A stretch of 49,601 bases of DNA, counting the filler, from Brevibacterium luteolum (GTDB lineage Bacteria; Actinomycetota; Actinomycetes; Actinomycetales; Brevibacteriaceae): the NCBI RefSeq assembly GCF_013004595.1. It is 7 parts of 7 records of this genome, joined end to end, with 100 filler letters (N's around TTAATTAATTAA, not from the genome) between each part and the next. Parts side by side here need not be neighbours in the genome. Positions count along the whole stretch, not along the records: positions 25,440 to 34,666 come from NZ_JABEMC010000016.1; 6 more parts are not named here. The stretch is one strand, 5' to 3'. This document shows positions 122 through 34,666 of the stretch, piece after piece. Below the pieces are notes generated by a model. It saw only the letters and a list, made by a program, of their open reading frames with translations. It searched no databases and was not told the DNA's origin. The position numbers and the translations under genes were made by a program. Numbering within the stretch: the stretch's first letter is position 1; every line of letters begins with the position of its first letter.

Positions 122-956
122 GTTCCTGGTTGTACCAGGCCACCCACTTCGACGTCTCCGCCATCACCTCGATCAACCCCGACCACACCCTCCGGTCGAT
201 AAGCTCGGCCTTGTAGACCGAGTTCAACGCCTCGGCCATGGCGTTGTCATACGAGTCCCCACGCGACCCCACCGACGCCACGACCTCTGACTCCGCCAGG
301 GTCTCGCCATAGCGAATCGACCGGAATTGCACCCCGCGATCCGAGTGGTGCACGAGCCCGGAAACGTCTTCGCCGGCCCGGTATTTCGCCGCGAGAGCCA
401 TAGTGAGTGCGTCCCTGGCTAGTGACTCCCGCATATGGTTCGTTACCTGCCAGCCCACGATCTCGCGGTGGAAGACATCGAGGATGAACGTCGTGTACAC
501 CCACCCAGCTTGAGTCGGAACATACGTAATATCGGCGACCCAAACGCAGTTCGGGCCAGGTGCTGTGAACTCGCGTTCGACAAGATCGTCCGGACACTCC
601 TCAGCCCTGGCCGAGGCCGTCTTCGGACGTTTCCGCTTCCGCCGGATTCCGTCGATGCCCAACCGGCGCATCAACCGCTCCACCGTGCAGCGGGCCACCG
701 GACCGAACCGGTCGGCGTAGTCGCGGTTGATCGCCTTCCACATCTTCCGCACCCCATAGCAGGAGTAGTTCGCCTCATAAACATCCTGGATAACCACCAT
801 CAGTGCCTGGTCCCGGCGGGCCCTGGCCGATGGCTGACGCTTCTTAAACGCGTAATACGAGCTCACAGCAATCCGTGCAGCAGTCCCGGACAGGGCGCGC
901 ACGATTGGCTCGACTCCGAACTCGTTGCGATTGTCGTCGATGAAGGCGACGATCAC
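122..956 (-). pseudogene. IS3 OrfB DDE transposase, C-terminally interrupted
   Basis: Motifs WVADITYV, HHSDRG, GDSYDNAMAE; breaks at WYNQE(R) where IS3-A begins. Confidence 0.9.
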
Positions 957-1264
957 TTCGATGGGCGGTCGAGCTCCGCCGCGAAGAAAGCCGAGGCCCT
1001 CTTCAGGATCTCATTGGCCCTCTTCGCTTCAGCCAACTCAGCCCGCAGCCGGCGATTCTCCGCTTCCAGGTCGACCGACTCGGCCGGGGTAGCTTTCCCG
1101 GAGTCTTTGTGCTTACGCACCCAGACTCGCAAGGTCTCTTTACTCAGACCGAGCTCACCGGCGACACGGGTGATCGCCCCGTTCGCGGTGTGCGGGTCGG
1201 CCTGGGCATGGATGACGAGCTCGACGGCACGAGCCTTGAGTTCGTCGGTATATTTCACTGGCAA
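953..1264 (-). CDS. IS3 OrfA (HTH)
   Basis: KYTDELKARAV...ANEILKRASAFFAAELDRP; TTG start after a GAAGGAGA RBS; 4-nt overlap with orfB. Confidence 0.88.
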   Translation of the reverse strand: MPVKYTDELKARAVELVIHAQADPHTANGAITRVAGELGLSKETLRVWVRKHKDSGKATPAESVDLEAENRRLRAELAEAKRANEILKRASAFFAAELDRPSK

Positions 1265-1318
1265 GAGAGAATCTCCTTCTTCCAATCTCCCTGCCTCTAT
1301 TATCCCCGGGGCGATTCA

Positions 1319-2406
1319 CGGAGGTTAGGTACACGCGGCGGGTCGGCTGGACATAGGGGAAGACCCCTGAGTGAAGTGTGGGACTTACGACAAAACCCAT
1401 TTCACGAAACAGAGGTCTTCCATGTCCCACCGTAACGCCATCTTGACCGAAACTGGACGTTTGCGCCTTGCTCGGCTCATCGTCGACCATGGATGGCCGC
1501 TTCGTCGAGCAGCGCAACGCTTCGGTGTCGCGGTCACCACGGCACGCCGCTGGGCTGAGCGCTACCGTGACCTTGGTGCTGCGGGCATGGCTGATCGGTC
1601 GTCGCGTCCGAAGCGCTGCCCTCGCCAGTTGTCGCGGCGTACCGAGCGTCGGATCGTTGGGCTACGGGTCACACGGCGCTGGGGACCGGCCCGGATCGCC
1701 TACCACCTCCACTTGAACCCCTCGACCGTCCACAAGGTCCTCACGCGTTACGGCTGCCCACCGTTGGCATGGACTGATCCGGCCACTGGGTGCCGGATCA
1801 AGACCTCACCGGCTCAACGACGCAGCTACGAGCACGCTGCCCCCGGTGACCTGATCCACGTCGACATCAAGAAACTCGGACGGATCCCCGATGGCGGCGG
1901 CCACAAGGTCCTCGGCCGTGCCGCTGGCCGCCGCAACAAAACCCGCACGGCCATGAACCGTCGCCCCGGCTACGCCTACATCCACAACGCCATCGACGAC
2001 CACTCCCGACTGGCCTACAGCGAAATCCTGACCGACGAGAAGAAGGAAACCGCAGCCGGATTCTGGACACGCGCCAACGCGTTCTTCGCTGCCGCCGGGA
2101 TCACCGTCACACGAGTGTTGACCGACAACGGAGCCTGCTACCGCTCCAACGCCTTCAAACACGCCCTCGGCAGCAACGTGACGCACAAACGCACCCGGCC
2201 CTACCGACCACAGACCAACGGCAAGGTCGAACGCTTCAACCGGATCATGCTTGAGGAATGGGCCTACGCCCAGCCCTACACCTCAGAAACCCAGCGCGTC
2301 CAAGCGTTCGACCAATGGCTGCACCACTACAATCACCACCGAGGCCACACCGCACTCAAGGGACAACCCCCAGCCGCGCGTGTACCCAACCTATCCGGGG
2401 CTTACA
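1319..2406 (+). mobile_element. IS481-family element, left IR interrupted by IS3-D
   Basis: Right end ...CCGGGGCTTACA at 2406 followed by target GCTAGC; the left IR remnant GGAGGTTAGGTACA lacks its TGT terminus. Confidence 0.88.
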
Positions 2407-2411
2407 GCTAG
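1422..2411 (+). CDS. IS481-family transposase
   Basis: MSHRNA..., HVDIKKLGRIP, DDHSR, TDNG, PQTNGKVERFNR; the TAG stop lies in the target site. Confidence 0.93.
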   Translation: MSHRNAILTETGRLRLARLIVDHGWPLRRAAQRFGVAVTTARRWAERYRDLGAAGMADRSSRPKRCPRQLSRRTERRIVGLRVTRRWGPARIAYHLHLNPSTVHKVLTRYGCPPLAWTDPATGCRIKTSPAQRRSYEHAAPGDLIHVDIKKLGRIPDGGGHKVLGRAAGRRNKTRTAMNRRPGYAYIHNAIDDHSRLAYSEILTDEKKETAAGFWTRANAFFAAAGITVTRVLTDNGACYRSNAFKHALGSNVTHKRTRPYRPQTNGKVERFNRIMLEEWAYAQPYTSETQRVQAFDQWLHHYNHHRGHTALKGQPPAARVPNLSGAYS

Positions 2412-2568
2412 CGTGCTCGTCGGCCCTGTCGAGGACCACGTAGGCGCGGTTGGCGTCCTTGCCGCGGGTCATCGCGACGTAGAAGTTCTCCCGCGTCGTG
2501 GTCGGTTCAACCAGGACGTGTGAGGTGTCGACGGTGACGCCCTGCGCCCTGTGGGTGGTGACCGCGTA
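2407..2568 (-). pseudogene. 3' fragment of the outer MobF relaxase-helicase (continuation of 18681-21231)
   Basis: YAVTTHRAQGVTVD...FYVAMTRG are SF1B/RecD-like helicase motifs V-VI. Joins in frame to ...HIDLG at 18683; cut again by IS481. Confidence 0.9.
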
Positions 2569-2594
2569 GCCGAGGTACCCCAAACACACCTACC
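2551..2594. other. Left att junction
   Basis: Host ...GGTGACCGCG, TA, then arm GCCGAGGTACCCCAAACACACCTACC. Confidence 0.85.
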
Positions 2595-2832
2595 GTGATC
2601 GTGTGTCTGTGCGCCCCAGTCTACGGCGGTGGGTGCCGATACCGCGGCCGTGAGTTGCGGGGACCCACCCTGCCAGAGGTCTGAGTTGCCGATCCGGAGC
2701 ATTGGCCTTACATCGATCCAGGCAGTGACTGCGCTCGGCAACAGGGTCCCGCCAGTAGACGCTCGTGAGGCTCTGCGTCTCCTTCAGCGCGCTCCGTCAG
2801 TCGTCAGTTGGTCCTGATAGGACGGGAGTGGA

Positions 2833-2870
2833 GTGAACCTAGGAGTGCCTGGGCGCTACTGATCTGGTGA
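2833..2870 (+). promoter_or_regulatory. Putative ECF-sigma promoter 1
   Basis: GTGAACCT-N13-CGCTACTGATC-NN-GTGA, repeated with identical spacing at 4278; GAAC-type -35. Confidence 0.7.
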
Positions 2871-2909
2871 TGGACATCGGACGGGAACGGCGGAGCGAGG
2901 TGAAGCTGG

Positions 2910-3473
2910 TTGGTGCAGAGCGGGGATGTGCAGACCGATGATCACCTACTGGCTCTGGTCGGTGGGGGCGACGAGCGTGCGCTCGGCCACTTGTATGCCC
3001 GCTACGCGTCGGTCGTGTTCGCGTTCGTTCTCGCCCGGGTCTCGGACCGTGGGGTCGCGGAGGAGGTGAGTGCGGATGTTTGGCTGGGATGCTGGCGATC
3101 GGCGCGCGCGTTCCGGCGCGACGCGAAGGTGCTCACCTGGTTACTCGGTATCGCGAAGCGCCAGATCTACATGCACACCCGCCGCAAACGCCTGCCACAG
3201 GTGCCCCTCGACGAAGAGCAGGCGAACGAGCTGCCCTCGGACGAACTCGGCCCGGCCGAACTGGTCTTGGCCGCCGATCAGGCGGCTGCCGTCTTGGATG
3301 CGCTCGATGCGCTCCCGGAGAGCTTGGCTGAGGTGGTGCGGTTGGCGTGGTTGCACGAGCTGCCGTACGAGGAGATCGCCGACGTTGTCGGTGTGCCGGT
3401 CGGGACGGTCAAGAGCCGGGTGTCACGGGCGCGAAGGCAGCTGCGTGAGGAACTGAGGAGGCAGGATGCCTGA
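2910..3473 (+). CDS. ECF sigma-70 factor
   Basis: Region 2 (AEEVSADVW...TWLLGIA) and region 4 (YEEIADVVGVPVGTVKSRVSRAR). Confidence 0.93.
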   Translation: MVQSGDVQTDDHLLALVGGGDERALGHLYARYASVVFAFVLARVSDRGVAEEVSADVWLGCWRSARAFRRDAKVLTWLLGIAKRQIYMHTRRKRLPQVPLDEEQANELPSDELGPAELVLAADQAAAVLDALDALPESLAEVVRLAWLHELPYEEIADVVGVPVGTVKSRVSRARRQLREELRRQDA

Positions 3474-4281
3474 ACACGAATCGAACCAGAACCGGGGCGA
3501 GGACATCCGCGACGTGCTGCGCCGGTGGGAGTCCGAGCGTGCCGCGCAGGCCCCGGACTTCTCGACGATCCATCGCCGTATAGCCGCGCAGCCGTCCCCG
3601 CTCGACGCACCGCGCTGGTCCGCGGCCCGGAGCCTGCGATTGGCTGGGGCGTTGGCGTGGGCGCAGGTGCGGGTGGTGCCGTGGCTCGTGCTGCCGGTGG
3701 TGCTGGTGACGGTGACGATGGCGGTGCTCGCCGCCCGTTTCCTCGGGGTGAGCCAGGGGGCGTCGGCGGCCGTGACGGGGTTCTCCGCACTGATGCTGCT
3801 GGGCGTGGCGGCGACGGTGACGATGGCGTTGTCGCCGAGCCGAGCGGATGCAGTGTCGCTGTCGACGCCGCTGGGGCCGCAGGTCGTCGTGATGGCGCGG
3901 ATCGGGATCGTGCTGGTTCTCGACGTGGTCTGCGGGACCGCGGCGTCGGTGGTGGTGACGGCGTGGGGGCACACCGGTGGACTGGGCGCGGTACTGGCCG
4001 GCTGGATGGTCCCGTTGGCGGTGATCGCTGGTGTCGCGACTTTCGTAGCGATCTGGGCAGTGCCGTGGGCGGGCATGATCGCCGGCCTGGTGTTGATTCC
4101 GCTGGTGACTCCGGCGTCGAACAGCACGATGAGCATCGGTCTCGGTGCGATCTCTGGCGTGGTCTGGGAGGCGATCACCCCGGCCGGTGTCGCGGCGCTC
4201 GGCATCCTGATCCTTGCCGCTGCGATCATCTCCGCCCGGTCTGCCGCTGCCCGCCGCGGAGGACTTCCTGAACCGGTGTGA
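3466..4281 (+). CDS. Multi-pass membrane protein, probable anti-sigma/permease
   Basis: Overlaps the sigma stop; polar N-terminus followed by about 6 hydrophobic segments. Confidence 0.75.
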   Translation: MPEHESNQNRGEDIRDVLRRWESERAAQAPDFSTIHRRIAAQPSPLDAPRWSAARSLRLAGALAWAQVRVVPWLVLPVVLVTVTMAVLAARFLGVSQGASAAVTGFSALMLLGVAATVTMALSPSRADAVSLSTPLGPQVVVMARIGIVLVLDVVCGTAASVVVTAWGHTGGLGAVLAGWMVPLAVIAGVATFVAIWAVPWAGMIAGLVLIPLVTPASNSTMSIGLGAISGVVWEAITPAGVAALGILILAAAIISARSAAARRGGLPEPV

Positions 4282-4315
4282 ACCTTCCCCGTCCGGACCG
4301 CTACTGATCCAGTGA
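4278..4315 (+). promoter_or_regulatory. Putative ECF-sigma promoter 2
   Basis: Second copy of the bipartite motif, upstream of the transporter genes. Confidence 0.7.
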
Positions 4316-4355
4316 AGGCCGAACAGCACCCTGCGCGTCGGCCTGGTTCAGGAAG

Positions 4356-4991
4356 GTGGATCGGATGTCGGGAGCGCTGCTGGGCACGCAATGGCGCCGC
4401 GTTGGCCTGCCCATCGCCGTAGGTCCGGTGATCGCGGGCGGCCTGGTCGCGGTCGCGGGCTGGCTGGTGTCGTCGGCGTGGCCGACATCGCAGGCGATGA
4501 CGCTGGTGACCTGGCTGGCGCAGGTCTTTGTGATCTGCGCCGGGGTGTGCGTGGCAGTCGCCCTCACCGGTGACCCGCTGATCGAGCTGCACGAGTCGAC
4601 GACCGTCGGTTTCCGCACCGTCCAACTGTTGCGCGGCCTACTCGTCACCGTCTCGGGGCTGGCTGGTGCGGTCGTGATGGTCGTGCCCCTGCATCTGCTC
4701 GGGATGTGGCCGCGCGATATCGGGTGGGCCAGCGTGGCCTCACCTGCCGGGGCAGTCGTGCTCGTCGCGGTGATCGCCCTGTTCGCAGCGGCATACGCCG
4801 GGACCGCGTCAGCCACGACGATCGCAGTCGTCGCAGCGTGGATGTTCCTCGCGATGCTCTGGGACCCGTACGTGCTCCCACTGCACTTGCAGCGGGGCGT
4901 GCCGCTTGCGGCCGCGGCGGTCCTGCTGGTCCTGGCCTGGCAGCGGCTCGGCAACTCGGAACGCAACATCGCGAAGGTGGCAACGGTATGA
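4356..4991 (+). CDS. ABC permease-like membrane protein
   Basis: About 6 TM segments and an ELHEST loop; coupled to the next gene by ATGA. Confidence 0.75.
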   Translation: MDRMSGALLGTQWRRVGLPIAVGPVIAGGLVAVAGWLVSSAWPTSQAMTLVTWLAQVFVICAGVCVAVALTGDPLIELHESTTVGFRTVQLLRGLLVTVSGLAGAVVMVVPLHLLGMWPRDIGWASVASPAGAVVLVAVIALFAAAYAGTASATTIAVVAAWMFLAMLWDPYVLPLHLQRGVPLAAAAVLLVLAWQRLGNSERNIAKVATV

Positions 4992-25439: not shown

Positions 25440-25566
25440 CGACGGTCATCGGTGCATTACGGTGAGTCATGGAAGACCTCCGGTTCGAGTGAGTGTGGTT
25501 ACCCACTTCGATATCGGAGGTCTTCTTTCACCTCAAATCCCGATCACAACCTCCCGAGGAAGTACA
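25440..25566 (-). mobile_element. Left end of the IS481 element seen whole at 48509-49601
   Basis: Reverse complement of the start of contig 7; abuts target CCTAGA. Confidence 0.9.
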
Positions 25567-25637
25567 CCTAGACGGCAGTTAAAGTATCGACTTGTCTTGC
25601 CACGGTTTCAAAATGCTTAGCTTCGACCTCGGCCGGG
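25567..25637 (-). repeat. 71-bp orphan fragment of IS3-C
   Basis: Identical to 30969-31039. Confidence 0.9.
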
Positions 25638-27102
25638 GGGCCTGTCAAATGGTGTGTGTAAGGGGTGTGGCACCACCCCCTGAAGGAGACACACTGTGAC
25701 GATTGACGCCATGCCGAAGATGAGCGCCGAGGAGCGCGCTGAGCGTCGTAGAAAGCAGGCCGAGCTCGCGGCCGAGCTCAAGACCACCGGAGCCCTGGAT
25801 GAGGTCTTCGCCCGGATCGATGCCGGTGAACCGCTGACCGGAGACGGCGGGGTGCTGGGCGGGATGCTCAAGGCCGCCCTGGAGCGGAGCCTGGAGGCCG
25901 AGCTGAGTGAGCACGTGGGCTATGAGAAGGGCGCGGTCGACGCCGCCGACCACCCGAACTCCCGTAACGGGCACTACGCCAAGACCGTGACGAGCGAGGT
26001 CGGGGACATCGAGCTCGCGATCCCGCGCGATCGGGCCGGGACCTTCACCCCGATGCTGGTAGGCAAGGGTCAGCGCCGCCTGGACGGGGTCGACGGGATG
26101 ATCATCTCGCTGTACGCCGGCGGGATGACGCTGCGCGACATCTCCCACCACCTAGCCTCCACGGTCGGGGTGGACGTGAGTCACGAGACGATCGGCAAGG
26201 TCGTGGACTCCATCGCCGAGGAGGTCCTCGCGTGGCAGCGCCGTCCGCTGGAGTCGCTGTACCCGGTGATCTACCTCGACGCGATCATGGTCAAGGTCAA
26301 GGACGGCTCTCACGTGGTCAACAAGGCCGCCCACATCGCCGTCGGCGTGGACATGGACGGCATCAAGCACGTCCTGGGGATCTGGGTCCAGACCCACGAG
26401 GGCGCGAAGTTCTGGGCCCAGGTCTGCGCGGACCTCGCCAACCGCGGGGTGCGCGACGTGCTGATCGTGTGCTGCGACGGGCTGACCGGCTTCCCCGAGG
26501 CGATCGAGGCGACCTGGCCGCTGGCCACCGTGCAGACCTGCGTGGTCCACCTGATCCGCGCCGCGATGCGGTTCGTGTCCTACGGGGACCGCAAGGCCGT
26601 CGCCACGGCGCTGAAGCCGATCTACACCGCCGCCAGCGAGGACGCGGCTCTGGAGGCGCTGGAGGCATTCGAGGCCGGCCCCTGGGGCACGAAGTACCCC
26701 GCCGCGGCGCGGACGTTCCGGGCGGCCTGGGAGCGGTTCATCCCGTTCCTGGCCCTCCCGCCCGAGCTACGCCGCGTCATCTACACGACGAACGCGATTG
26801 AGTCGCTGAACTACCAGCTGCGCAAGGTCACCAAGAACCGCGGCCACTTCCCCAACGACGCCGCCGTGGTCAAGCTGCTGTGGCTGGCGATCTGCAACAT
26901 CGAGGACAAGCGAGCCCGGGAGCGCGAGAAGGAACGCGGCCTACCCGCCGCTGAACGCCGAGCCCCCGGACGCCTCATCGAAGGATCGGTAACCACGAAC
27001 TGGAAGGCCGCCCTCGGCCAACTCGCCCTCGTCTACCCCGAACGAATCGAACCCTACCTGTAACCCCCGTCACACCCCTTACACACAGGGATTGACAAGC
27101 CC
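25638..27102 (+). mobile_element. IS256-family element
   Basis: IRs GGGCCTGTCAA...TGTGTGTAAGGGG and CCCCTTACACACA...TTGACAAGCCC; no flanking duplication. Confidence 0.92.
25696..27063 (+). CDS. IS256 transposase
   Basis: RNGHY, PRDR, YLDA, DGLTG, QTCVVH, TTNAIES. Confidence 0.95.
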   Translation: MTIDAMPKMSAEERAERRRKQAELAAELKTTGALDEVFARIDAGEPLTGDGGVLGGMLKAALERSLEAELSEHVGYEKGAVDAADHPNSRNGHYAKTVTSEVGDIELAIPRDRAGTFTPMLVGKGQRRLDGVDGMIISLYAGGMTLRDISHHLASTVGVDVSHETIGKVVDSIAEEVLAWQRRPLESLYPVIYLDAIMVKVKDGSHVVNKAAHIAVGVDMDGIKHVLGIWVQTHEGAKFWAQVCADLANRGVRDVLIVCCDGLTGFPEAIEATWPLATVQTCVVHLIRAAMRFVSYGDRKAVATALKPIYTAASEDAALEALEAFEAGPWGTKYPAAARTFRAAWERFIPFLALPPELRRVIYTTNAIESLNYQLRKVTKNRGHFPNDAAVVKLLWLAICNIEDKRAREREKERGLPAAERRAPGRLIEGSVTTNWKAALGQLALVYPERIEPYL

Positions 27103-27107
27103 ACCGA

Positions 27108-27450
27108 TCAGCGACTGCGGAGGGCTCTGACGAATGAGGTGACCATGGTGTCGAAGACCATCGCCCAGACCGCTGGTCCGATCCAGAACCAGTGCTGGCC
27201 GACCAGTTCGATCGCCGGCACACGACCCGGGCGGCCCAGATGCATGCTCGCCGCCGTTCGCATGCCCAGCAGGAAGACCATGCTCCACAGTCCGGCCGAA
27301 AAGGTCATCGGCAGCGTGTGGACGGCATGTCGCCAGATTCCCTCGGCGCCGATCGACATGACGCCGGTCGCCATCACCGAGGCCCAGCGTCGACGGGCTC
27401 AGCCCCCACCGTCTGTGCATTCCGGTGGGATTGCGATCGGCCGTGCTCAT
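27108..27450 (-). pseudogene. Tellurite-resistance/C4-dicarboxylate (TDT/SLAC1) transporter remnant
   Basis: N-terminal MATGVMSIG sits directly next to C-terminal WSMVFLLGM, implying a large internal deletion plus a frameshift. Confidence 0.6.
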
Positions 27451-27800
27451 TCGCTTCTCATTCTCGTCGCCGTGTGTCAAGGGACATCGACGTCTTCGGT
27501 AGTGCGACCCTACCCCTGAAATCGCCTTACGGTCCCGGCCATCTAGAGGGCGCCGCGGTCCCATCGAAAGACCGCACGGACTCTGTGCAGGAAACCGATG
27601 TGCAATTCGTGACAACTGGGTCTTCTCGGGTCACTCTCCCACTATTTTCATGAGAGAATTCATTGGAGTTACCAATGGGTAATTTCGCATGGAGTCGCCC
27701 GTTGCGCACCCCCCCCACGTGCCGGTAGTGGCGTATTCTGCAGTCACCTGCGCGGTGCAGAATTCTTCGGCACTGACCGGAGCGACGAAGGCACAGACGA

Positions 27801-28673
27801 TTGGGAGCGATGGCTATGGAGAGCACGATGAACACTCTCGCCGAGGACACCGACATCGACGCGCCAGCGGTCGCGGTGCGCGGTTGGTCGCTGTCCGGCA
27901 AACAGGGCGATGTGTTCACCGATATCGACCTCGAGGTGCCGACCGGTGCCATCGCTGTCGTCCGTGGTCCCGCTGGCAGCGGGAAGACCTCTCTCCTCCT
28001 GTCCTTGGCAGGAAGGATGCGGGTCTCCGAGGGGGAGGGCCGCCTCGGCGATATCGATATCCGCAAGCAGGCCCGCACCGTGCGCGGGCAGGTTGCGGTC
28101 GGACATATCGGCGGGCTGACGGACCTTGAGGACGATTTCACGGTTGCACAGCACGTCGCAGAACGACAGATCATGCTCCAGCCCTGGTACAAGCCGTGGG
28201 CGTCGAAATCGACCCTGCGTGAGGTCATCGGTCTCATTCGGGACACCTTCACCACGGCCAAGGAGATCATTGACGAACTCCCGCCGGGGACGTTCTCGAA
28301 GCAGGACGCCCAGCGCGCGGACTTCCTCATCGACGATGACGGAGAGGTATTCGTCTCTGAGCTGAGTGAGCTGCAGAAATTCTTCCTCGAACTCGGGCTG
28401 GCGAGTCTCAGCCGCCAACCCGTCGTCGTCATCGACAACATCGACTACCTGCGCGAATCCGCCGACCGAGCCCGTGCTTGGGCCGGGATCCTCATCTACC
28501 AGCAGCTGCGCAGATCACGGGATCCCGAGGACCTGCTCACGGTCATCGTCTCCTGCGAGGACTCGAGCGAACTCGACATCGCCACCAGGTCGCTCGGCTC
28601 CCGCGCGGAGCCGTCGATTGTCGAACTCGAACTGCCGCCCCACCCTCCCGCTCATCGCGGGTCCAAACACTGA
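27801..28673 (+). CDS. ABC ATP-binding-like protein (degenerate signature and Walker B)
   Basis: GPAGSGKT; ELSELQK and VVVIDNID replace LSGGQ and hhhhDE; start uncertain (27801-27828). Confidence 0.8.
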   Translation: MGAMAMESTMNTLAEDTDIDAPAVAVRGWSLSGKQGDVFTDIDLEVPTGAIAVVRGPAGSGKTSLLLSLAGRMRVSEGEGRLGDIDIRKQARTVRGQVAVGHIGGLTDLEDDFTVAQHVAERQIMLQPWYKPWASKSTLREVIGLIRDTFTTAKEIIDELPPGTFSKQDAQRADFLIDDDGEVFVSELSELQKFFLELGLASLSRQPVVVIDNIDYLRESADRARAWAGILIYQQLRRSRDPEDLLTVIVSCEDSSELDIATRSLGSRAEPSIVELELPPHPPAHRGSKH

Positions 28674-28712
28674 ACTTCCTGCCCACGTATACGAATCCGA
28701 GGAGATTCCCGA

Positions 28713-30890
28713 ATGTTCTCCCTGCCCTGGTTAGAACTCTCACGATTCAAACGCCACACGATCACGCGCTTGGCGATGATCGTCATCATCGTCATCCCGT
28801 CGATCTACGGTGGGCTCTACCTGGCCTCGAATTGGGACCCGGCCGGGCACCTCGACAAGCTGCAGGCAGCGATCGTCAACGAGGATACCGGCGCCGAGAA
28901 GCCCGAGTCGGACGGAGAGAAGCTCGACGCCGGTCAGGAACTCGTTGACGAGCTCACGCCGAAGGGCGAAGGCGGATTCGACTGGCAGGAGACCAGCCAG
29001 AAAGAAGCCGACGAGGGGCTGGCTAAAGGGAAGTACTTCGCGGTCCTCGAGATCCCCTCGGACTTCTCCGAGATGCTCGTGTCGACCGGCGGTGACCATC
29101 CGGAGCAGGCAGGGCTGCGGCTGCGCACCGACGACGCCCACAACTTCATCGTCGGGCAGATGGCCGGGACCATCCTCTCCGAGATCAAGGACGGACTGAG
29201 TAAGACGACGACCGCCGAGTACGTCAACCAGGTGTATCTCGGATTCAACGATATCCACTCCGAGACGGAGAAGGCTGCAGACGGTGCGGCCGAACTGCAC
29301 GACGGAGCAGACCAACTCCACGACGGTACCAGCGAACTCGTCGGTGGGACGACGAAGCTCGACAAGGGCATCGGAACCCTGCAGACCGGGCTCAACGACC
29401 TCGATAAGGGCGCAGGTGAACTGAAGAAAGGCAGCGGCGACCTTGCCGACGGTGCCGACACCCTGGCGAAATCCACCACAGAGGCGAAGAACGGTTCGAA
29501 GAAACTCGCCGACGGCGCAGGACAGGTCGCCGACGGCACCTCGGAGCTGCGTGATACCGCCGACGAGGCCACGAGGAAGGCCGAGGACGTCAAACGAAAG
29601 GCCGATGACGTCGTCGATGGGGCCCGCCCCGAGCTCGAGCGCGCCGAAGGGGACTTCGACGATGCTCGAACCACCGTGCGAGGGGATATGGACGACCGGA
29701 TCAAGCAGCTGCAGGAGGACTATCCGGACGACCCGAACGTCAAGAAACTCGCCGAGGAGGCCGACGGCCTCGGCGAGGACCTCGATTCCGCGCACCAGCG
29801 CGCCTCCGATGCCAAGGATAAGGCCAAGAACCTCGAGGACAAGCTGACCGACGCGGTCGACGGGGTGATGGACGAGATCCGCACGGCGGATAAGAAGATC
29901 GGTCAGCTCGACGACGGAGCGCAGGAGGTCGCGACCGGTGCCGACGACCTCCACTCCGGGCTGATCAAGCTCGACACAGGTGCGGGAAAGCTCGCCAAAG
30001 GTGTCGGGGACCTCCATGACGGTGCCGTCCAGCTCAAGGACGGCACGGCGAAGGCCAAGGACGGAGCCGGTGATCTCAAGGACGGTTCGGAACAGCTCGT
30101 TGACGGGTCGACCGAACTCGACAAGGGCGCGGGCAAACTCGTTGACGGCTCCGGCGAACTCGCCGATGGTCTGCAGAAGGGACTTGAGCAGATCCCGACC
30201 TATGACAAGAAGGACCGGGAGAACCGTTCGAATGTCGTGGCTGTTCCCGTCGATGCAGACAAAGTCAAGGACAACGCGGTCGACGCCTATGGCGAGGGAC
30301 TGTCCGCGTTCTTCGTCTCCTTGGCCCTGTGGATCGGCGGAATGATCACCTATATGGTCATCAACGCCATTCCATATCGGGCGCTGTTCTCATCGGCGAC
30401 TTCGTCGCGCATCGCCTGGGCCGGCTACGTTCCCGGGCTGCTCTTCGGTATCGCTCAAGTCGCAGTTCTCTATGCGATCCTCGCATTCACCTTGGACTTC
30501 TCGGCCGGAGCGTGGCTGTGGACGGTGCTGTTCTCGATGCTCGCGGCGGCGTGTTTCCACTCCGTGCACCAGTTGTGTGTCGCGGCCTTGGGCGGTGTCG
30601 GCAGACTGATCGCCCTGGTCCTGCTGATGCTGCAGATCGCTTCGGCAGGCGGAACCTATCCGGTGGAGACGGCACCGAAGATCTTCCAGATCATCTCGCC
30701 GTTCCTGCCGATGACGCACGCGGTCAAGGGCCTGCGGACCCTGGTCGCCGGCGGCGACATGTTCATCGCCGTGCAGGCGGCAGTGGTGCTGCTGCTGATG
30801 ACTGCAATCCCCCTGGTCGCCACAACCGTGGTCTGCAGTCGCAAGCGTATGGTCACTCTCACTCAGCTCCACCCGAGCCTGCAGCTGTAG
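28713..30890 (+). CDS. YhgE/Pip-family membrane protein
   Basis: N-terminal TM plus WDP/AIVNED, long LxxG heptad region, C-terminal TMs with GGTYPVE and LPMT. Confidence 0.92.
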   Translation: MFSLPWLELSRFKRHTITRLAMIVIIVIPSIYGGLYLASNWDPAGHLDKLQAAIVNEDTGAEKPESDGEKLDAGQELVDELTPKGEGGFDWQETSQKEADEGLAKGKYFAVLEIPSDFSEMLVSTGGDHPEQAGLRLRTDDAHNFIVGQMAGTILSEIKDGLSKTTTAEYVNQVYLGFNDIHSETEKAADGAAELHDGADQLHDGTSELVGGTTKLDKGIGTLQTGLNDLDKGAGELKKGSGDLADGADTLAKSTTEAKNGSKKLADGAGQVADGTSELRDTADEATRKAEDVKRKADDVVDGARPELERAEGDFDDARTTVRGDMDDRIKQLQEDYPDDPNVKKLAEEADGLGEDLDSAHQRASDAKDKAKNLEDKLTDAVDGVMDEIRTADKKIGQLDDGAQEVATGADDLHSGLIKLDTGAGKLAKGVGDLHDGAVQLKDGTAKAKDGAGDLKDGSEQLVDGSTELDKGAGKLVDGSGELADGLQKGLEQIPTYDKKDRENRSNVVAVPVDADKVKDNAVDAYGEGLSAFFVSLALWIGGMITYMVINAIPYRALFSSATSSRIAWAGYVPGLLFGIAQVAVLYAILAFTLDFSAGAWLWTVLFSMLAAACFHSVHQLCVAALGGVGRLIALVLLMLQIASAGGTYPVETAPKIFQIISPFLPMTHAVKGLRTLVAGGDMFIAVQAAVVLLLMTAIPLVATTVVCSRKRMVTLTQLHPSLQL

Positions 30891-30969
30891 GCCGGGCCGG
30901 GTGCGGGGTCGTGCCTTGGGGTTCGGGCTGCAGAGTTGTCGCGGGACTGAACCGTCCTGGGTTTCATTC

Positions 30970-31887
30970 CTAGACGGCAGTTAAAGTATCGACTTGTCTT
31001 GCCACGGTTTCAAAATGCTTAGCTTCGACCTCGGCCGGGGTCCGATGTCCGAGTCCTTCATGCAGCCGGCCGGTGTTCCACCAGTGCACCCAGTTCATCG
31101 TCGCGAACTCCACCTCGGTCAGCCCAGCCCACGCCGGCTGCGAGTAGATCAGCTCAGTCTTGTACAGCCCGTTGACCGTCTCAGCCAGTGCATTGTCATA
31201 GCTGTCTCCTACACTCCCCACAGACGGCCGGATACCCGCGTCAGCGAGTCGCTCGGTGTAGGCCACGGCAACATACTGCGAGCCTCTGTCAGAGTGGTGG
31301 ACTAGCTGCTCAGCACCACCGCGGGCAGTGTTCAGCGCATGCTCCAAAGCCTCCAGCGACAGCGCCTCAGTCGTCATCGACGACCGCGTCGCCCACCCGA
31401 CGATGCGGCGGCTATACGCGTCGATGACGAATGCGGTGTAGACGAATCCGCACGAGGTCCGCACGTAGGTGATGTCAGCGACCCACAGACGGTTCGGCGC
31501 CGGCGCTTTGAAGTCCCGCATCACCAAATCCGGACGCTGATCCGGCACACGGGCCGGCACCGTCGTACGCGGCTTCCGACCGCGCACGACCCCTGTCACG
31601 CCGGCCACGCGCATGAGCCTCGCTGTCTGGTCCCGGCCGATATCCCACCCGGCTCGGCGCATCGCGTGCCACATCTTCCGCACCCCGTAGACGCCGTAGT
31701 TCGCAGCATGGAGCCGCTTGACCTCCTCGACGAGAAGACCATCGCGAATGGCGCGAGCTGCGGGCTTCCGGGATTTCGCTGCCCGGTAGCCACGGGAGGT
31801 GATGAACCCACACGCCGTCGCGCCCAGGACGCGACAGATGAACTCGACCCCGAAACGACCCCGGAACGTGTCGATGAACCGGATCAT
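30970..31887 (-). CDS. IS3 OrfB transposase
   Basis: WVADITY, HHSDRGSQY, DNALAE. Confidence 0.93.
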   Translation of the reverse strand: MIRFIDTFRGRFGVEFICRVLGATACGFITSRGYRAAKSRKPAARAIRDGLLVEEVKRLHAANYGVYGVRKMWHAMRRAGWDIGRDQTARLMRVAGVTGVVRGRKPRTTVPARVPDQRPDLVMRDFKAPAPNRLWVADITYVRTSCGFVYTAFVIDAYSRRIVGWATRSSMTTEALSLEALEHALNTARGGAEQLVHHSDRGSQYVAVAYTERLADAGIRPSVGSVGDSYDNALAETVNGLYKTELIYSQPAWAGLTEVEFATMNWVHWWNTGRLHEGLGHRTPAEVEAKHFETVARQVDTLTAV

Positions 31888-32201
31888 TTCGTCGTGGGAC
31901 GGTCGAGCTCCGCGGCGAAAAACGCTGACGCGGTCTTGAGGATCTCGTTCGCGCGTTTGAGCTCCTTGACCTCGCGGCGCAACCGCTTGAGTTCCTCGAG
32001 GTCCGCGCTCGTAGGACCTTCTTCGACACCGGCGTCACGGCGGGCCTGCTTCGACCATCCCCGCAAAGTATGCGGCGAGACGCCCAGCTTCTCCCCGACG
32101 GCAGTCGCCGCTGTCCATTCCGAGGTCTCCTCAATGCGGCGATGGTCCTGCATCACCCGCAGCGCCCGCTCCTTGAACTGCGGGGTATACGACTTGGCCA
32201 T
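31884..32201 (-). CDS. IS3 OrfA
   Basis: MAKSYTPQFK...ANEILKTASAFF; GAGGAGG RBS. Confidence 0.9.
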   Translation of the reverse strand: MAKSYTPQFKERALRVMQDHRRIEETSEWTAATAVGEKLGVSPHTLRGWSKQARRDAGVEEGPTSADLEELKRLRREVKELKRANEILKTASAFFAAELDRPTTK

Positions 32202-32252
32202 GTTCCAATCCTCCTCGATCACGTAGATCGGAACGAAACCCAGGACGGTTCA

Positions 32253-32336
32253 ACCCGGAACGATGACGCGAGACATCACCCCCAAAACAAAAAGAAATCT
32301 CGGGACATCGAGTGAACGATGTCCCGAGACTTCACA
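32253..32336 (+). mobile_element. Right end of an IS481-like transposon with repeated binding motifs
   Basis: Ends GTGAACGATGTCCCGAGACTTCACA; 13-bp perfect IR at 32298-32329; related motif near 32259-32276. Confidence 0.7.
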
Positions 32337-32352
32337 CTTGTGGAGCTAAGGG
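32337..32352 (-). other. 16-bp inter-element spacer matching a tRNA-Ala 3' end
   Basis: Minus strand CCCT-TAGCTCC-A-C: T-stem end, Ala acceptor 3' strand with U70, discriminator A. Confidence 0.65.
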
Positions 32353-32765
32353 TGTCCGGTCTCACGACATAGTTGACACTCTGCGGCCTGGTTGAACGCG
32401 AGTGATAGTTGACAGGTGTCTCGGGACATCCTTGACACTTCGCCGGAGGTGATAGTTGACAGGTGTCTCGGGACATCGTTGACAGTCTCGGCATGGTCAG
32501 AGCATGCGCAATCATAAGAATCTGGTCATTGTCCGATCTGTTATCGATCACGGGGTGAGCGTTGCGGCAGCGGCGAAGAAGTTCGGTGTCTCCCGGCAGT
32601 GGATCTATCAGCTCATTGCCCGCTATCAAGCATTCGGGCCTAGCGGCGTGCAGCCGCGCAGTACCGCCCCGCACAGCCGGCCGATCACCACCTGTGAAGC
32701 AGTCCGGGAACGGATCATCAACCTGCGTGATGAGCTGATGGCTACAGGCAGCGAAAACGGTGCAG
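32353..32765 (+). mobile_element. Left end and transposase N-terminus (ATG 32504) of an IS481-like element, interrupted by IS3-A
   Basis: Starts TGTCCGGTCTCACGACATAGTTGAC; 36-bp direct repeats at 32402-32437 and 32449-32484; HTH AAKKFGVSRQWIY...RSTAPH. Confidence 0.85.
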
Positions 32766-33523
32766 GGGACTGCTGAAGGTTTGGTTGACTTCACGACTGG
32801 ATAAATTCCAGGAAGGTGAGAGGTCATGCCCAAGATCTACACCGATGAGTTCAAGCAGTCAGCGCTCGATCTCGTAGGCGACGGAATGTCCCAGAGGCAG
32901 GTGTGCGCTGATCTCGGGATCTCGAAATCAGCCCTGCAAGCCTGGGTGCGTGACTCACGGCTACGCGACCACGGACTCGAGCCCGCGACCGAGCCCGACG
33001 AGTCACGCGCTCAAGCGGCAGCGCTGAAGCGCATCAGGGAACTTGAACGAGAGAACAAAATTCTCCGCGAGGCTGCAGCGTATCTCTCGCAAGCGAATCT
33101 GAAACTTGGTGGCAACCACCCAAAATGATGTACCCGCTGGTCCGCGACCTTGCTTCCACCGGAGTACCGGTGGCGGTGACCTGTCGGGTGCTCGGCTTTA
33201 CGAAGCAGGGGTTCTACAAGTGGTGTGCAAATCCGGTCTCGACTCGGGACTGGGACGAAGCGCACGTGATCAATGCCGCCTACGACGTGCACATGGACGA
33301 CCCGGAATTCGGGCACCGGTTCATCGCAGATGAACTCCAGGCGTCCGGGCACGAGGCGTCAGAACGTCGTGTGTGGCGATTATGCTCGCAGCAGGAACTG
33401 TTCTCCCACACGATCAAACGAGCCCGGAAACACGGTAAGAAGCCTGGCCCGCCGGTGTGTGATGACCTCGTCGAACGCGACTTCTCATCCTCGGCAATAA
33501 ACGAGTTGTGGTTGACCGACATC
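32766..33523 (+). mobile_element. IS3-A isoform, 5' part (host of the group II intron)
   Basis: GGGACTGCTG end, orfA, and orfB 33125-33523 up to LWLTDI. Confidence 0.9.
32826..33128 (+). CDS. IS3 OrfA
   Basis: MPKIYTDEFK...ENKILREAAAY. Confidence 0.9.
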   Translation: MPKIYTDEFKQSALDLVGDGMSQRQVCADLGISKSALQAWVRDSRLRDHGLEPATEPDESRAQAAALKRIRELERENKILREAAAYLSQANLKLGGNHPK

Positions 33524-34539
33524 GAGCGCCACGAGGCGCTTCTGGACCTTGCGGTGGTGAAAGGACACCGCTTCGCGTCTGTCGCAGCAGGCGTGTGATA
33601 GCTGGAGGACGATCTGCCGTGTTGGCGTGAATGCGGCGGGTGGAGCAGTCCTCGACAACGACGAGTCGTATCAGTACTGCCAGATGGTGCGGGCTCGGCT
33701 AGCGAGACGGAGAGGCATACGGATAGGAACCAGTGGCTGAAAGCCCCTCAATTGAAGACCACCGACTCCAACCTGGTGGATGTGGGTCGGGTTGCATCGC
33801 GCACCCTCGCCGCTTCGGTGGTGGGGAGAACTCCTGGGCTGGGTGATGTCGCCGGTCGGGAGGCCACGGTGAATGACTGCGGCGTAGTCGTGGCGAGGAT
33901 GCTGGGGCATAACTGGGTGCCGATCCCGTCGAAAGGTTCGGAAGTGAACGTGGGAACCATCCCGGTTCCGCCGGGGCACCGTCGCAGCCAGCGACGATTT
34001 CCTCGGCTGAGTGCACGGTCTGCTGATCGGGCCGGGGTGGGGCGGAGGGCCTGTAGTAGTCCGAGGCCGGGAAAGCCGGTCACATGGCGAAGGGGTCCAG
34101 TGTGATCGCAGTGACAGAAGCAGAAAAGGAGGCACAGCCGTGAATGCGGATGTTCCGTGGCCTGCCGACACATCGGAGGCGTGGGCGCGGGTACTGACTA
34201 TGCAGACGAAACTGCACCGATGGGCGACGGGCGATCCTGCTCGTCGTTTCGATGATGTGTTCAATCTGGTCTATGACCCCGCGTTCCTCGCCGCGGCGTG
34301 GAATCGGGTGGCGGGAAACAAGGGAGGCCGCACTGCTGGAGTCGATGGGATCGCGCCGCGATCCGTCACCCCGGACCGAGTGTCGGGGATGCTCGCCGAT
34401 CTGCGCGAGAGCGTCAAGAACGGCGAGTTCGTCCCGGAACGGGTGCGTCAGAAGTCGATCCCGAAGGGCAACGGCAAGGTCCGTAGCTTGGGGATTCCGA
34501 CGATGACGGACCGGATCGTTCAGGCCTCCCTGAAACTGG
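33524..34539 (+). ncRNA. Group II intron, 5' part (domains I-IV start)
   Basis: Starts GAGCG where transposase homology stops; EBS1 GATGTC (33845-33850) is complementary to IBS1 GACATC (33518-33523). Confidence 0.88.
34140..34539 (+). pseudogene. ltrA: Group II intron RT/maturase, N-terminal part
   Basis: AAAGGAGG plus GTG; RT0 NKGGRTAGVDG, IPKGNGKVRSLGIPT, DRIVQ. Confidence 0.9.
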
Positions 34540-34666
34540 GGGACTGCTGAAGGTTTGGTTGACTCCGGGGTTTACGCCGCCAGAGCGACGGCCTTGTGAT
34601 GAACAAGCTCGTATTCAACCGGGGTCAGTTTACCCAAACGCCGTTGCCGACGCTTGCGGTGATAGG
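34540..34666 (-). mobile_element. IS3-A right end
   Basis: Same 25-bp IR; minus strand encodes YHRKRRQRRLGKLTPVEYE. Confidence 0.9.

Follow-up and report, generated by a model that had tools for sequence, protein, structure and literature searches.

IS481-family insertion sequences of one actinobacterial clade target tRNA genes at the T-loop

A clade of single-gene insertion sequences of the IS481 family in Actinomycetota targets tRNA genes in general. The sequences compared here indicate that the target is the T-loop common to tRNAs and not tRNA-Ala, and both the targeting and its geometry can be regarded as close to certain. The locus under study belongs to Brevibacterium luteolum (genome G000) and lies in a window of 49,601 nucleotides, i.e., the whole stretch of DNA analysed, in which separate contigs are strung together by N-linkers; the locus itself is on contig C8 (window 25440-34666).

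The tRNA-Ala(CGC) locus of B. luteolum

An earlier note had described positions 32253..32765 as a right end and a left end separated by a spacer of exactly 16 bp that fits a tRNA-Ala 3′ end. Re-checked on the sequence, this description is exact, the spacer occupying 32337-32352. The features of the locus on C8 (window coordinates) and on contig C19 are as follows.

30948..32252, minus strand: IS3-family element (orfA 31884-32222, orfB 30970-31887) that truncates the older right end
32253..32336, minus strand: right-end remnant of an older element from the same clade (clade A), recognised by the right-end matrix and by matching ends in G000 and in the relative L036
32337..32352, minus strand: 16-bp target duplication, made up of tRNA-Ala(CGC) positions 62-74 and 3 flanking bases, with the other copy at G000:C19 1421-1436
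32353..32503, plus strand: left end of the newer element, with a TGT terminus and several repeated motifs resembling transposase-binding sites; 99% identity to the left end of the intact relative L037
32504..32765, plus strand: N-terminal 87 codons of an IS481-family transposase (helix-turn-helix region), with helix-turn-helix matches
32763..32765, plus strand: CAG, repeated at G000:C19 401-403, a 3-bp duplication by the IS3 element that splits the transposase gene; on L037, these 3 bp are exactly the overlap between the two pieces
32766..34666, plus strand: nest of later insertions within the transposase gene (IS3, group II intron reverse-transcriptase fragment, second IS3 end)
G000:C19 403-1308: remaining 302 transposase codons, which cover the DDE core and C-terminal beta-barrel; the right end comes next, with its tip at 1420
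G000:C19 1424-1497, minus strand: intact tRNA-Ala(CGC), beyond the right end and the 16-bp copy

The older right end, read on the minus strand from 32336, is TGTGAAGTCTCGGGACATCG; it is 94-98% identical to ends found at tRNA-Ala(TGC) and tRNA-Ser(GGA) of the same genome and matches the right end of L036 at 90%. The left and right flanks of the IS3 element that truncates it are not alike, so the remainder of the older element has probably been deleted. Within this IS3 element, an ALIL frameshift signal is found at 31813-31926 with an Rfam score under the gathering threshold. The left end of the newer element, from 32353, is TGTCCGGTCTCACGACATAG and carries several TTGACA-containing repeats ahead of the transposase ATG at 32504; Rfam detects no RNA family in the element ends within the window. 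The window copy of the transposase gene is dead, being split by an IS3 element. In the nest that follows, a group II intron reverse-transcriptase fragment (TIGR04416, E 6e-21, under the cut-off because the fragment is incomplete) sits inside IS3 orfB, and another IS3 end, reversed, lies in the intron at the contig end. These IS3 ends recur at many of the assembly's contig ends. Elsewhere on C8, an IS256/Mutator-family transposase gene (25696-27063) is preceded, at 25567-25638, by a 72-bp exact copy of the IS3 orfB end (30969-31040).

In the 2.97-Mb genome, the 16-mer has two exact occurrences, one in the window and the other at the 3′ end of tRNA-Ala(CGC) on C19, where the transposase C-terminus is followed by a right end, the same 16 bp, and the tRNA gene on the opposite strand. 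The tRNA-Ala on the minus strand that the earlier note had expected beyond the downstream right end is therefore present on C19, and no tRNA was found within the window, as the note had stated. Its view of an IS481-like DDE element inserted at a tRNA 3′ end, with a duplication of about 16 bp that rebuilds the gene, also holds: the same 16 bp stand on both sides and the tRNA is intact. In the relative Brevibacterium sp. p3-SID960 (L037), an uninterrupted element of 1451 bp is flanked by the same 16-bp pair; bases 54-496 of L037 match C8 and bases 494-4422 match C19 with 99% identity and a 3-bp overlap. Because of this alignment and the 3-bp CAG duplication, we infer that C8 and C19 are joined in the genome, and from the same matches the locus would run from the tRNA through one copy of the duplication, the newer element, and the other copy to the older right end. 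The L037 transposase (L037:235-1425) has a tandem duplication of seven residues in its C-terminal barrel that the copy in G000 does not have.

A right-end matrix trained on relatives finds five sites when the whole of G000 is scanned, namely, both ends in the window and three ends located 23-24 nt from a tRNA T-loop. The arrangement of the ends and the 16-mer in G000 is far beyond chance. Behind tRNA-Ser(GGA), a 389-bp transposase-free element lies between 15-bp repeats (L003, G000:C1 138246-138634), while at tRNA-Ala(TGC) there is a bare right end only. At tRNA-Val(TAC), about 1.5 kb of DNA carrying genes for an AraC regulator and a glyoxalase-type protein lie between element-like ends (L002:1238-2850, G000:C15) and are followed by an imperfect duplication and then a second right end; this region is a transposase-free cargo cassette in a stack. 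Weaker end remnants are seen at tRNA-His(GTG) and tRNA-Ala(GGC). Among the tRNA-Ala(CGC) genes of 11 relatives, two have a clear right end at offset 23, one is borderline, seven are empty, and one is unreadable.

Targets and insertion geometry across the clade

Homologues were gathered on protein similarity alone. A quick IQ-TREE run with SH-aLRT support only, on 86 proteins of at least 340 aa (close duplicates omitted), places 59 rows in clade A (SH-aLRT 99), which takes in Micrococcales and Solirubrobacterales. After fragments had been assigned by HMM and three same-place duplicates removed, clade A comprised 96 loci, 78 of them with a scorable right end (end locatable and flank present). 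The 18 unscored loci include ten without the C-terminus, four at a contig edge, and four missed by the matrix, two of which do adjoin tRNAs. The outgroup rows L026 and L138 were caught by a loose tree-label pattern; both are without a tRNA call and without a defined end. The metagenome set, of 79 loci, was fetched separately and scored with the same matrix.

The motif TTCRANY lies 23-25 nt from the right end in 73 of the 78 clade-A loci (23 nt in 41, 24 nt in 29, and 25 nt in 3) and at 22-24 nt in 54 of the 62 scorable metagenome ends; since kin loci, same-genome copies, and shared insertions are not independent, these totals are counts and not a statistical test. A full head-on tRNA is called by ARAGORN at 65 of the 78 right ends, with 22 anticodon labels. 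In the metagenome set, a tRNA or tmRNA is called at 37 ends, with Asp, Gln, Thr, and Trp newly added; aside from the eight ends without the motif, 15 of these loci are too short and in two no end was found. Right ends lacking the motif (5/78 and 8/62) include one tandem junction in each set, and most of the others, having no duplication, may be rearranged; L057 shows a near-duplication beside only four of nine motif bases. The targeting rule is kept across distant classes of the phylum. Viral contigs gave 26 loci, 11 of which were inspected, with one clade-A copy at tRNA-Pro, and one record of a plasmid collection matched.

The strongest single case for general tRNA targeting is genome G131, where one element is present in six copies at six tRNAs: Pro(GGG), Pro(TGG), Ser(CGA), Ser(GCT), Ala(GGC), and Ala(CGC). 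Moreover, the clade-A element L219 stands behind a tmRNA gene in the same register, so that a T-loop outside tRNA genes is usable as a target. In three of the G131 copies (L100, L102, and L103), the flanking duplications are cyclically exchanged among tRNA-Ser(CGA), Ser(GCT), and Ala(CGC), which points to recombination between copies having rearranged the chromosome. Flanks of mismatched tRNA type are also seen at L012, L036, L121, and L125.

The clade-A right end stands head-on to the tRNA, 23-25 nt from the first T of the T-loop TTC. Exact duplications are 15 bp (n=27), 16 bp (n=11), or 17 bp (n=1) long, and they start 8 nt after that first T in 39/39 cases of the first set and in 15/15 of the metagenome set, which we take to be tRNA position 62 in the standard numbering. 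The cut on the tRNA side is constant, the far cut is variable, and the tRNA is left whole after insertion. The T-loop lies outside the duplication and is not copied; therefore, each newcomer inserts between the tRNA and the preceding element, and copies stack with the newest closest to the tRNA. Beyond the far duplication, a tandem right end is found in 6/37 elements, and the window is alike, in agreement with the stacking that the earlier note had proposed. At L196, the left junction is irregular.

Right ends frequently carry a hairpin. When hairpin strength was scored against 20 block shuffles per end, strong hairpins in the tRNA direction were found at 26/36 clade-A right ends, at 7/36 left ends, and at 0/12 right ends of sister groups. 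The older right end in the window has an intrinsic-terminator-like hairpin with a T run (32333-32294, tRNA direction; z -5.9) and is a canonical terminator-like site. Such hairpins fit a role in replacing the displaced tRNA terminator, but the right-end hairpin could also stop the transposase transcript. In L076, L079, L082, L090, and L097, the right-end hairpin contains GGGTTCGG, a sequence similar to the T-loop motif, which may be chance, a decoy, or a binding site. When the ends were searched by eye for a guide RNA, one subclade showed T-loop-like letters in its right-end hairpins, but this was not general.

Recognition of the target

While the duplicated bases are variable, tRNA positions 52-62 are almost invariant. 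GGTTCRA alone occurs 980 times in G000; the 13-nt motif RGGTTCRANYCCY (tRNA positions 51-63) occurs 43 times, 37 of them within tRNA calls, and matches 70/78 targets, a fit that is partly circular as the motif was derived from tRNAs. Because it is nearly confined to tRNA calls in G000 and matches most targets, the linear motif appears to be sufficient as a target. Sites without a T-stem bear on the same point: at L045, a perfect 16-bp duplication stands beside GGTTCGATT and keeps the +8 register, with one of five T-stem pairs and no tRNA, while L222 (two of five pairs) and L242 resemble it but have no confirmed duplication, so that among the three stemless sites a perfect duplication is seen in L045 only. 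The targets of L042, L046, and L059 are orphan 3′ fragments of tRNAs; at the exceptional target sites, Rfam recognises no RNA family except tRNA. The stemless and orphan sites suggest that the transposase reads a linear DNA motif, and direct readout of the T-loop motif in this form by the transposase alone is, in our judgement, the probable mode of recognition.

The mechanism proposed below is built on end products seen in genomes. The transposase would read the linear motif RGGTTCRANYCCY in DNA. The left end would be joined to the 61/62 bond of the tRNA-sense strand, which is fixed, and the right end to the other strand 15-17 nt onward, a position that is looser; host gap filling would then rebuild the acceptor strand. 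As the motif falls mostly outside the duplication, the sole remaining target would be the one adjoining the tRNA, and the next element would enter between the tRNA and the earlier copy, shifting older copies outward. The right-end hairpin, where present, as it often is, might stand in for the displaced tRNA terminator.

Several other explanations should be considered. The targeting may be real, with the T-arm recognised as a DNA hairpin or cruciform, or on single-stranded DNA, rather than as linear sequence. Almost all targets indeed have four or five of the five T-stem pairs, and the target of casposons, in the available part of the source, also includes the T-arm palindrome (PMC5137440); however, L045, L222, and L242 do without the stem, and the linear 13-mer is by itself already nearly tRNA-specific in G000, so we consider structural recognition unlikely. 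Slightly less probable again is the recruitment of the transposase by a host factor or RNA (a tRNA-gene protein, a transcription complex, or an R-loop), as proposed with XerCD for the ISAba32 group, a precedent suggested in the sections available of the IS1202 preprint (10.1101/2022.12.17.520857). Such recruitment would agree with the fact that the element encodes no separate target selector, but insertions at orphan 3′ fragments and at non-tRNA sites, where there is no tRNA promoter, keep to one and the same register, and the rule is common to distant classes of the phylum. A further point against host recruitment is that no bacterial T-loop DNA-binding protein is known to us. It is improbable that the N-terminal helix-turn-helix domains bind the T-arm as a mimic of a transposon end. 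Targeted insertion beside end-like sequences does occur in IS911 and IS30, and tRNA positions 46-53 (GTCGNRGG in many class I tRNAs) are like the end core GTCTCRGG; nevertheless, the Ser, Leu, and Tyr genes do not have that stretch and are frequent targets, the stemless sites retain GTTCRA, which is absent from the end core, and sister groups with similar ends have different targets.

Two further possibilities have a probability close to nil. According to one of them, elements insert loosely and selection retains only the copies behind tRNAs; a minority of ends do lack the motif and genomes display survivors only, but a base-exact register with a fixed orientation at more than 120 sites is beyond the reach of selection, and sister IS481 elements with similar ends are located elsewhere. 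According to the other, a narrow version of the reading in the earlier note, the element is specific for tRNA-Ala and recognises the duplicated acceptor sequence, as the window copy and its near-identical relative, both at tRNA-Ala(CGC), might lead one to think. The duplicated bases, however, vary freely, the older end type in G000 is found at a Ser and two Ala genes, and Ser, Ala, and Val sites coexist in that genome; at the clade level, this specificity is already contradicted, being ruled out by the six tRNAs that hold one element in G131 and by the 22 anticodon labels in clade A.

The transposase, its relatives, and known systems

Intact elements are 1.27-1.46 kb long and are occupied by one ORF, with terminal inverted repeats TGTCCGG / TGTCCTG that match at 22/26 positions. 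In L037, it is a single ORF of 396 aa with an N-terminal HTH and a DDE core, whose catalytic residues D145, D204, and E249 (L039 numbering) are invariant in the clade; K256, seven residues past E, is present in 98% of clade A. By analogy with IS3, transposition of IS481 elements would follow a copy-out, paste-in route via a circle. The NCBIfam IS481 profile gives 254.7 bits for L037, 266.5 for L039, and 253.5 for L043 against a cut-off of 224, confirming the family proposed in the earlier note. The ISNCY model (NF033594), which we take to stand for the IS1202 group, gives 80.8 bits against a cut-off of 250; this score, together with K and not Q after the catalytic E, leads us to reject membership in IS1202, and the comparison with IS1202 drawn in the earlier note is one of resemblance only, the 15-17 bp duplication being shared with the ISTde1 subgroup.

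About 90 C-terminal residues extend beyond the IS481 profile. An AlphaFold model of L039 (pLDDT 88.7) predicts an RNase H-fold DDE enzyme with the domain order HTH-HTH-DDE-beta-barrel, the nearest structures being IstA, TnsB, and MuA. When the C-terminal domain was folded alone, the five best structure matches were again IstA/TnsB/MuA proteins with weak Z scores of 4.6-5.2, Foldseek returned no match for this domain at E 0.001, and Pfam and PDB sequence searches with it gave nothing useful. In TnsB, the middle domain contacts target DNA according to the part of the source available (PMC9527255). The C-terminal domain contains residues conserved in clade A only, as do the catalytic core and other regions, and sister groups without tRNA targeting have the barrel too. 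On the predicted structure, the beta-barrel would be the likeliest reader of the target, a tentative assignment that falls just short of an even chance.

Among known systems, IS481 members with duplications of about 15 bp, in the portion of the IS481EU paper available (PMC10045372), likewise have a single DDE transposase and TGT...ACA ends; clade A, with duplications of 15-17 bp, differs from them in its strict, oriented T-loop targeting, in stacking, and in the extra C-terminal residues. The word "tRNA" occurs 0 times in the main text of that paper, as it does in the main text of the IS1202 preprint (10.1101/2022.12.17.520857). The latter, as far as its available text goes, describes a subgroup, ISTde1, with the same duplication length of 15-17 bp, for which no target is given, and insertion at xer sites for the group with 5-6 bp duplications. 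Its ISAba32 subgroup resembles clade A in oriented, tandem build-up with the newest copy closest to the site, but the left end adjoins xer sites there, whereas the right end adjoins a tRNA here, and IS1202 has Q where clade A has K, seven residues past the catalytic E.

The closest functional analogue is provided by the casposons of Aciduliprofundum boonei and Methanosarcina mazei. In the parts of the sources available (PMC5137440, PMC6977970), one enzyme acts on a target that includes a tRNA T-loop segment, with a duplication of 14-15 bp and a predicted tandem build-up in which the newest copy is beside the tRNA. Unlike clade A, however, casposons are large and self-synthesising, use one tRNA type each, and have a duplication that covers only the last 4-5 bp of the gene; they rely on a Cas1-type enzyme, while clade A has an RNase H-fold DDE transposase and no Cas1-family integrase. 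The Dada transposons of eukaryotes, as described in the accessible part of PMC3706591, are a looser parallel: they are DDE elements specific for RNA genes (tRNA and snRNA) and occur in tandem, but they belong to an unrelated superfamily, make 6-7 bp duplications, and insert inside the gene, each family using one RNA gene. With Tn7-like TnsB, phage Mu MuA, and IS21 IstA, clade A shares the predicted domain order and repeated end motifs, but its element of 1.27-1.46 kb contains no TnsC ATPase or TniQ/TnsD selector, and its duplications are 15-17 bp instead of the about 5 bp of Tn7-like, Mu, and IS21 elements. A tyrosine-integrase att site was also considered and rejected: the repeat starts at position 62 and abuts TGT...ACA ends, and both hallmarks of integrase islands at tRNAs, an integrase gene and an att repeat that includes the T-loop or a longer part of the tRNA, are absent from between and within the L037 repeats.

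No description of tRNA targeting by an IS481 element was found in the full-text literature, a search whose scope excluded ISfinder, TnPedia, and most subscription journals; PMC9569102, PMC2991359, PMC3751702, and 10.1101/2025.05.28.656266 contain nothing on it in their available parts. The homing of an IS481 clade to tRNA T-loops is real. Bacterial transposons that are site-specific normally depend on additional selector proteins or on guide RNAs, while a transposase of about 390 residues appears to locate every tRNA gene end alone and to leave the gene working. If true, this would offer a compact safe-harbour integration tool for actinobacteria as well as a testable case for the long duplications and target choice of a DDE enzyme. 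Genome annotation is affected as well: where short tRNA-end repeats enclose integrase-free "islands" in these bacteria, they can be traces left by this transposase, and the regions behind different tRNAs are exchanged when its copies recombine.

Sister IS481 elements have similar ends and 14-15 bp duplications and are not located at tRNAs. Four copies in G071 (L028, L111-L113) and four in G100 (L094, L114-L116) each occupy a fixed place in a short REP-like repeat typical of the respective genome. A separate clade of four rows, clade B, adjoins tRNAs by its left end and is co-directional with them, the duplication starting +13/14 from the T-loop TTC; the tRNAs are Arg, Lys, Met, and Thr (loci L093, L117, L139, L145, L252-L259, L261, L274, L276, L278, and L279). 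A search with a clade-B query found a co-directional tRNA 121-167 nt ahead of the gene in 13/29 loci, and four of the search loci have a 15-bp duplication at offset 29. Clade B is probably an independent origin of tRNA targeting.

A wider interpretation, which is possible but falls somewhat short of an even chance, is that the long-duplication IS481 lineage consists of site-specific integrases that are single proteins and have an aiming domain able to evolve. The barrel would have adapted on two separate occasions to reading the T-loop (right end, +8; left end, +13/14), and in sister groups to reading short genomic repeats. As the target survives each insertion, autonomous and cargo copies would then assemble into ordered arrays anchored at tRNAs, a DDE counterpart of CRISPR arrays and casposons. 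The search also returned longer relatives with ORFs of about 600 aa (L262, L266, L267, L269, and L273), whose left ends lie shortly after a common non-tRNA motif that starts with TTGA and contains GAAA, possibly a third target type.
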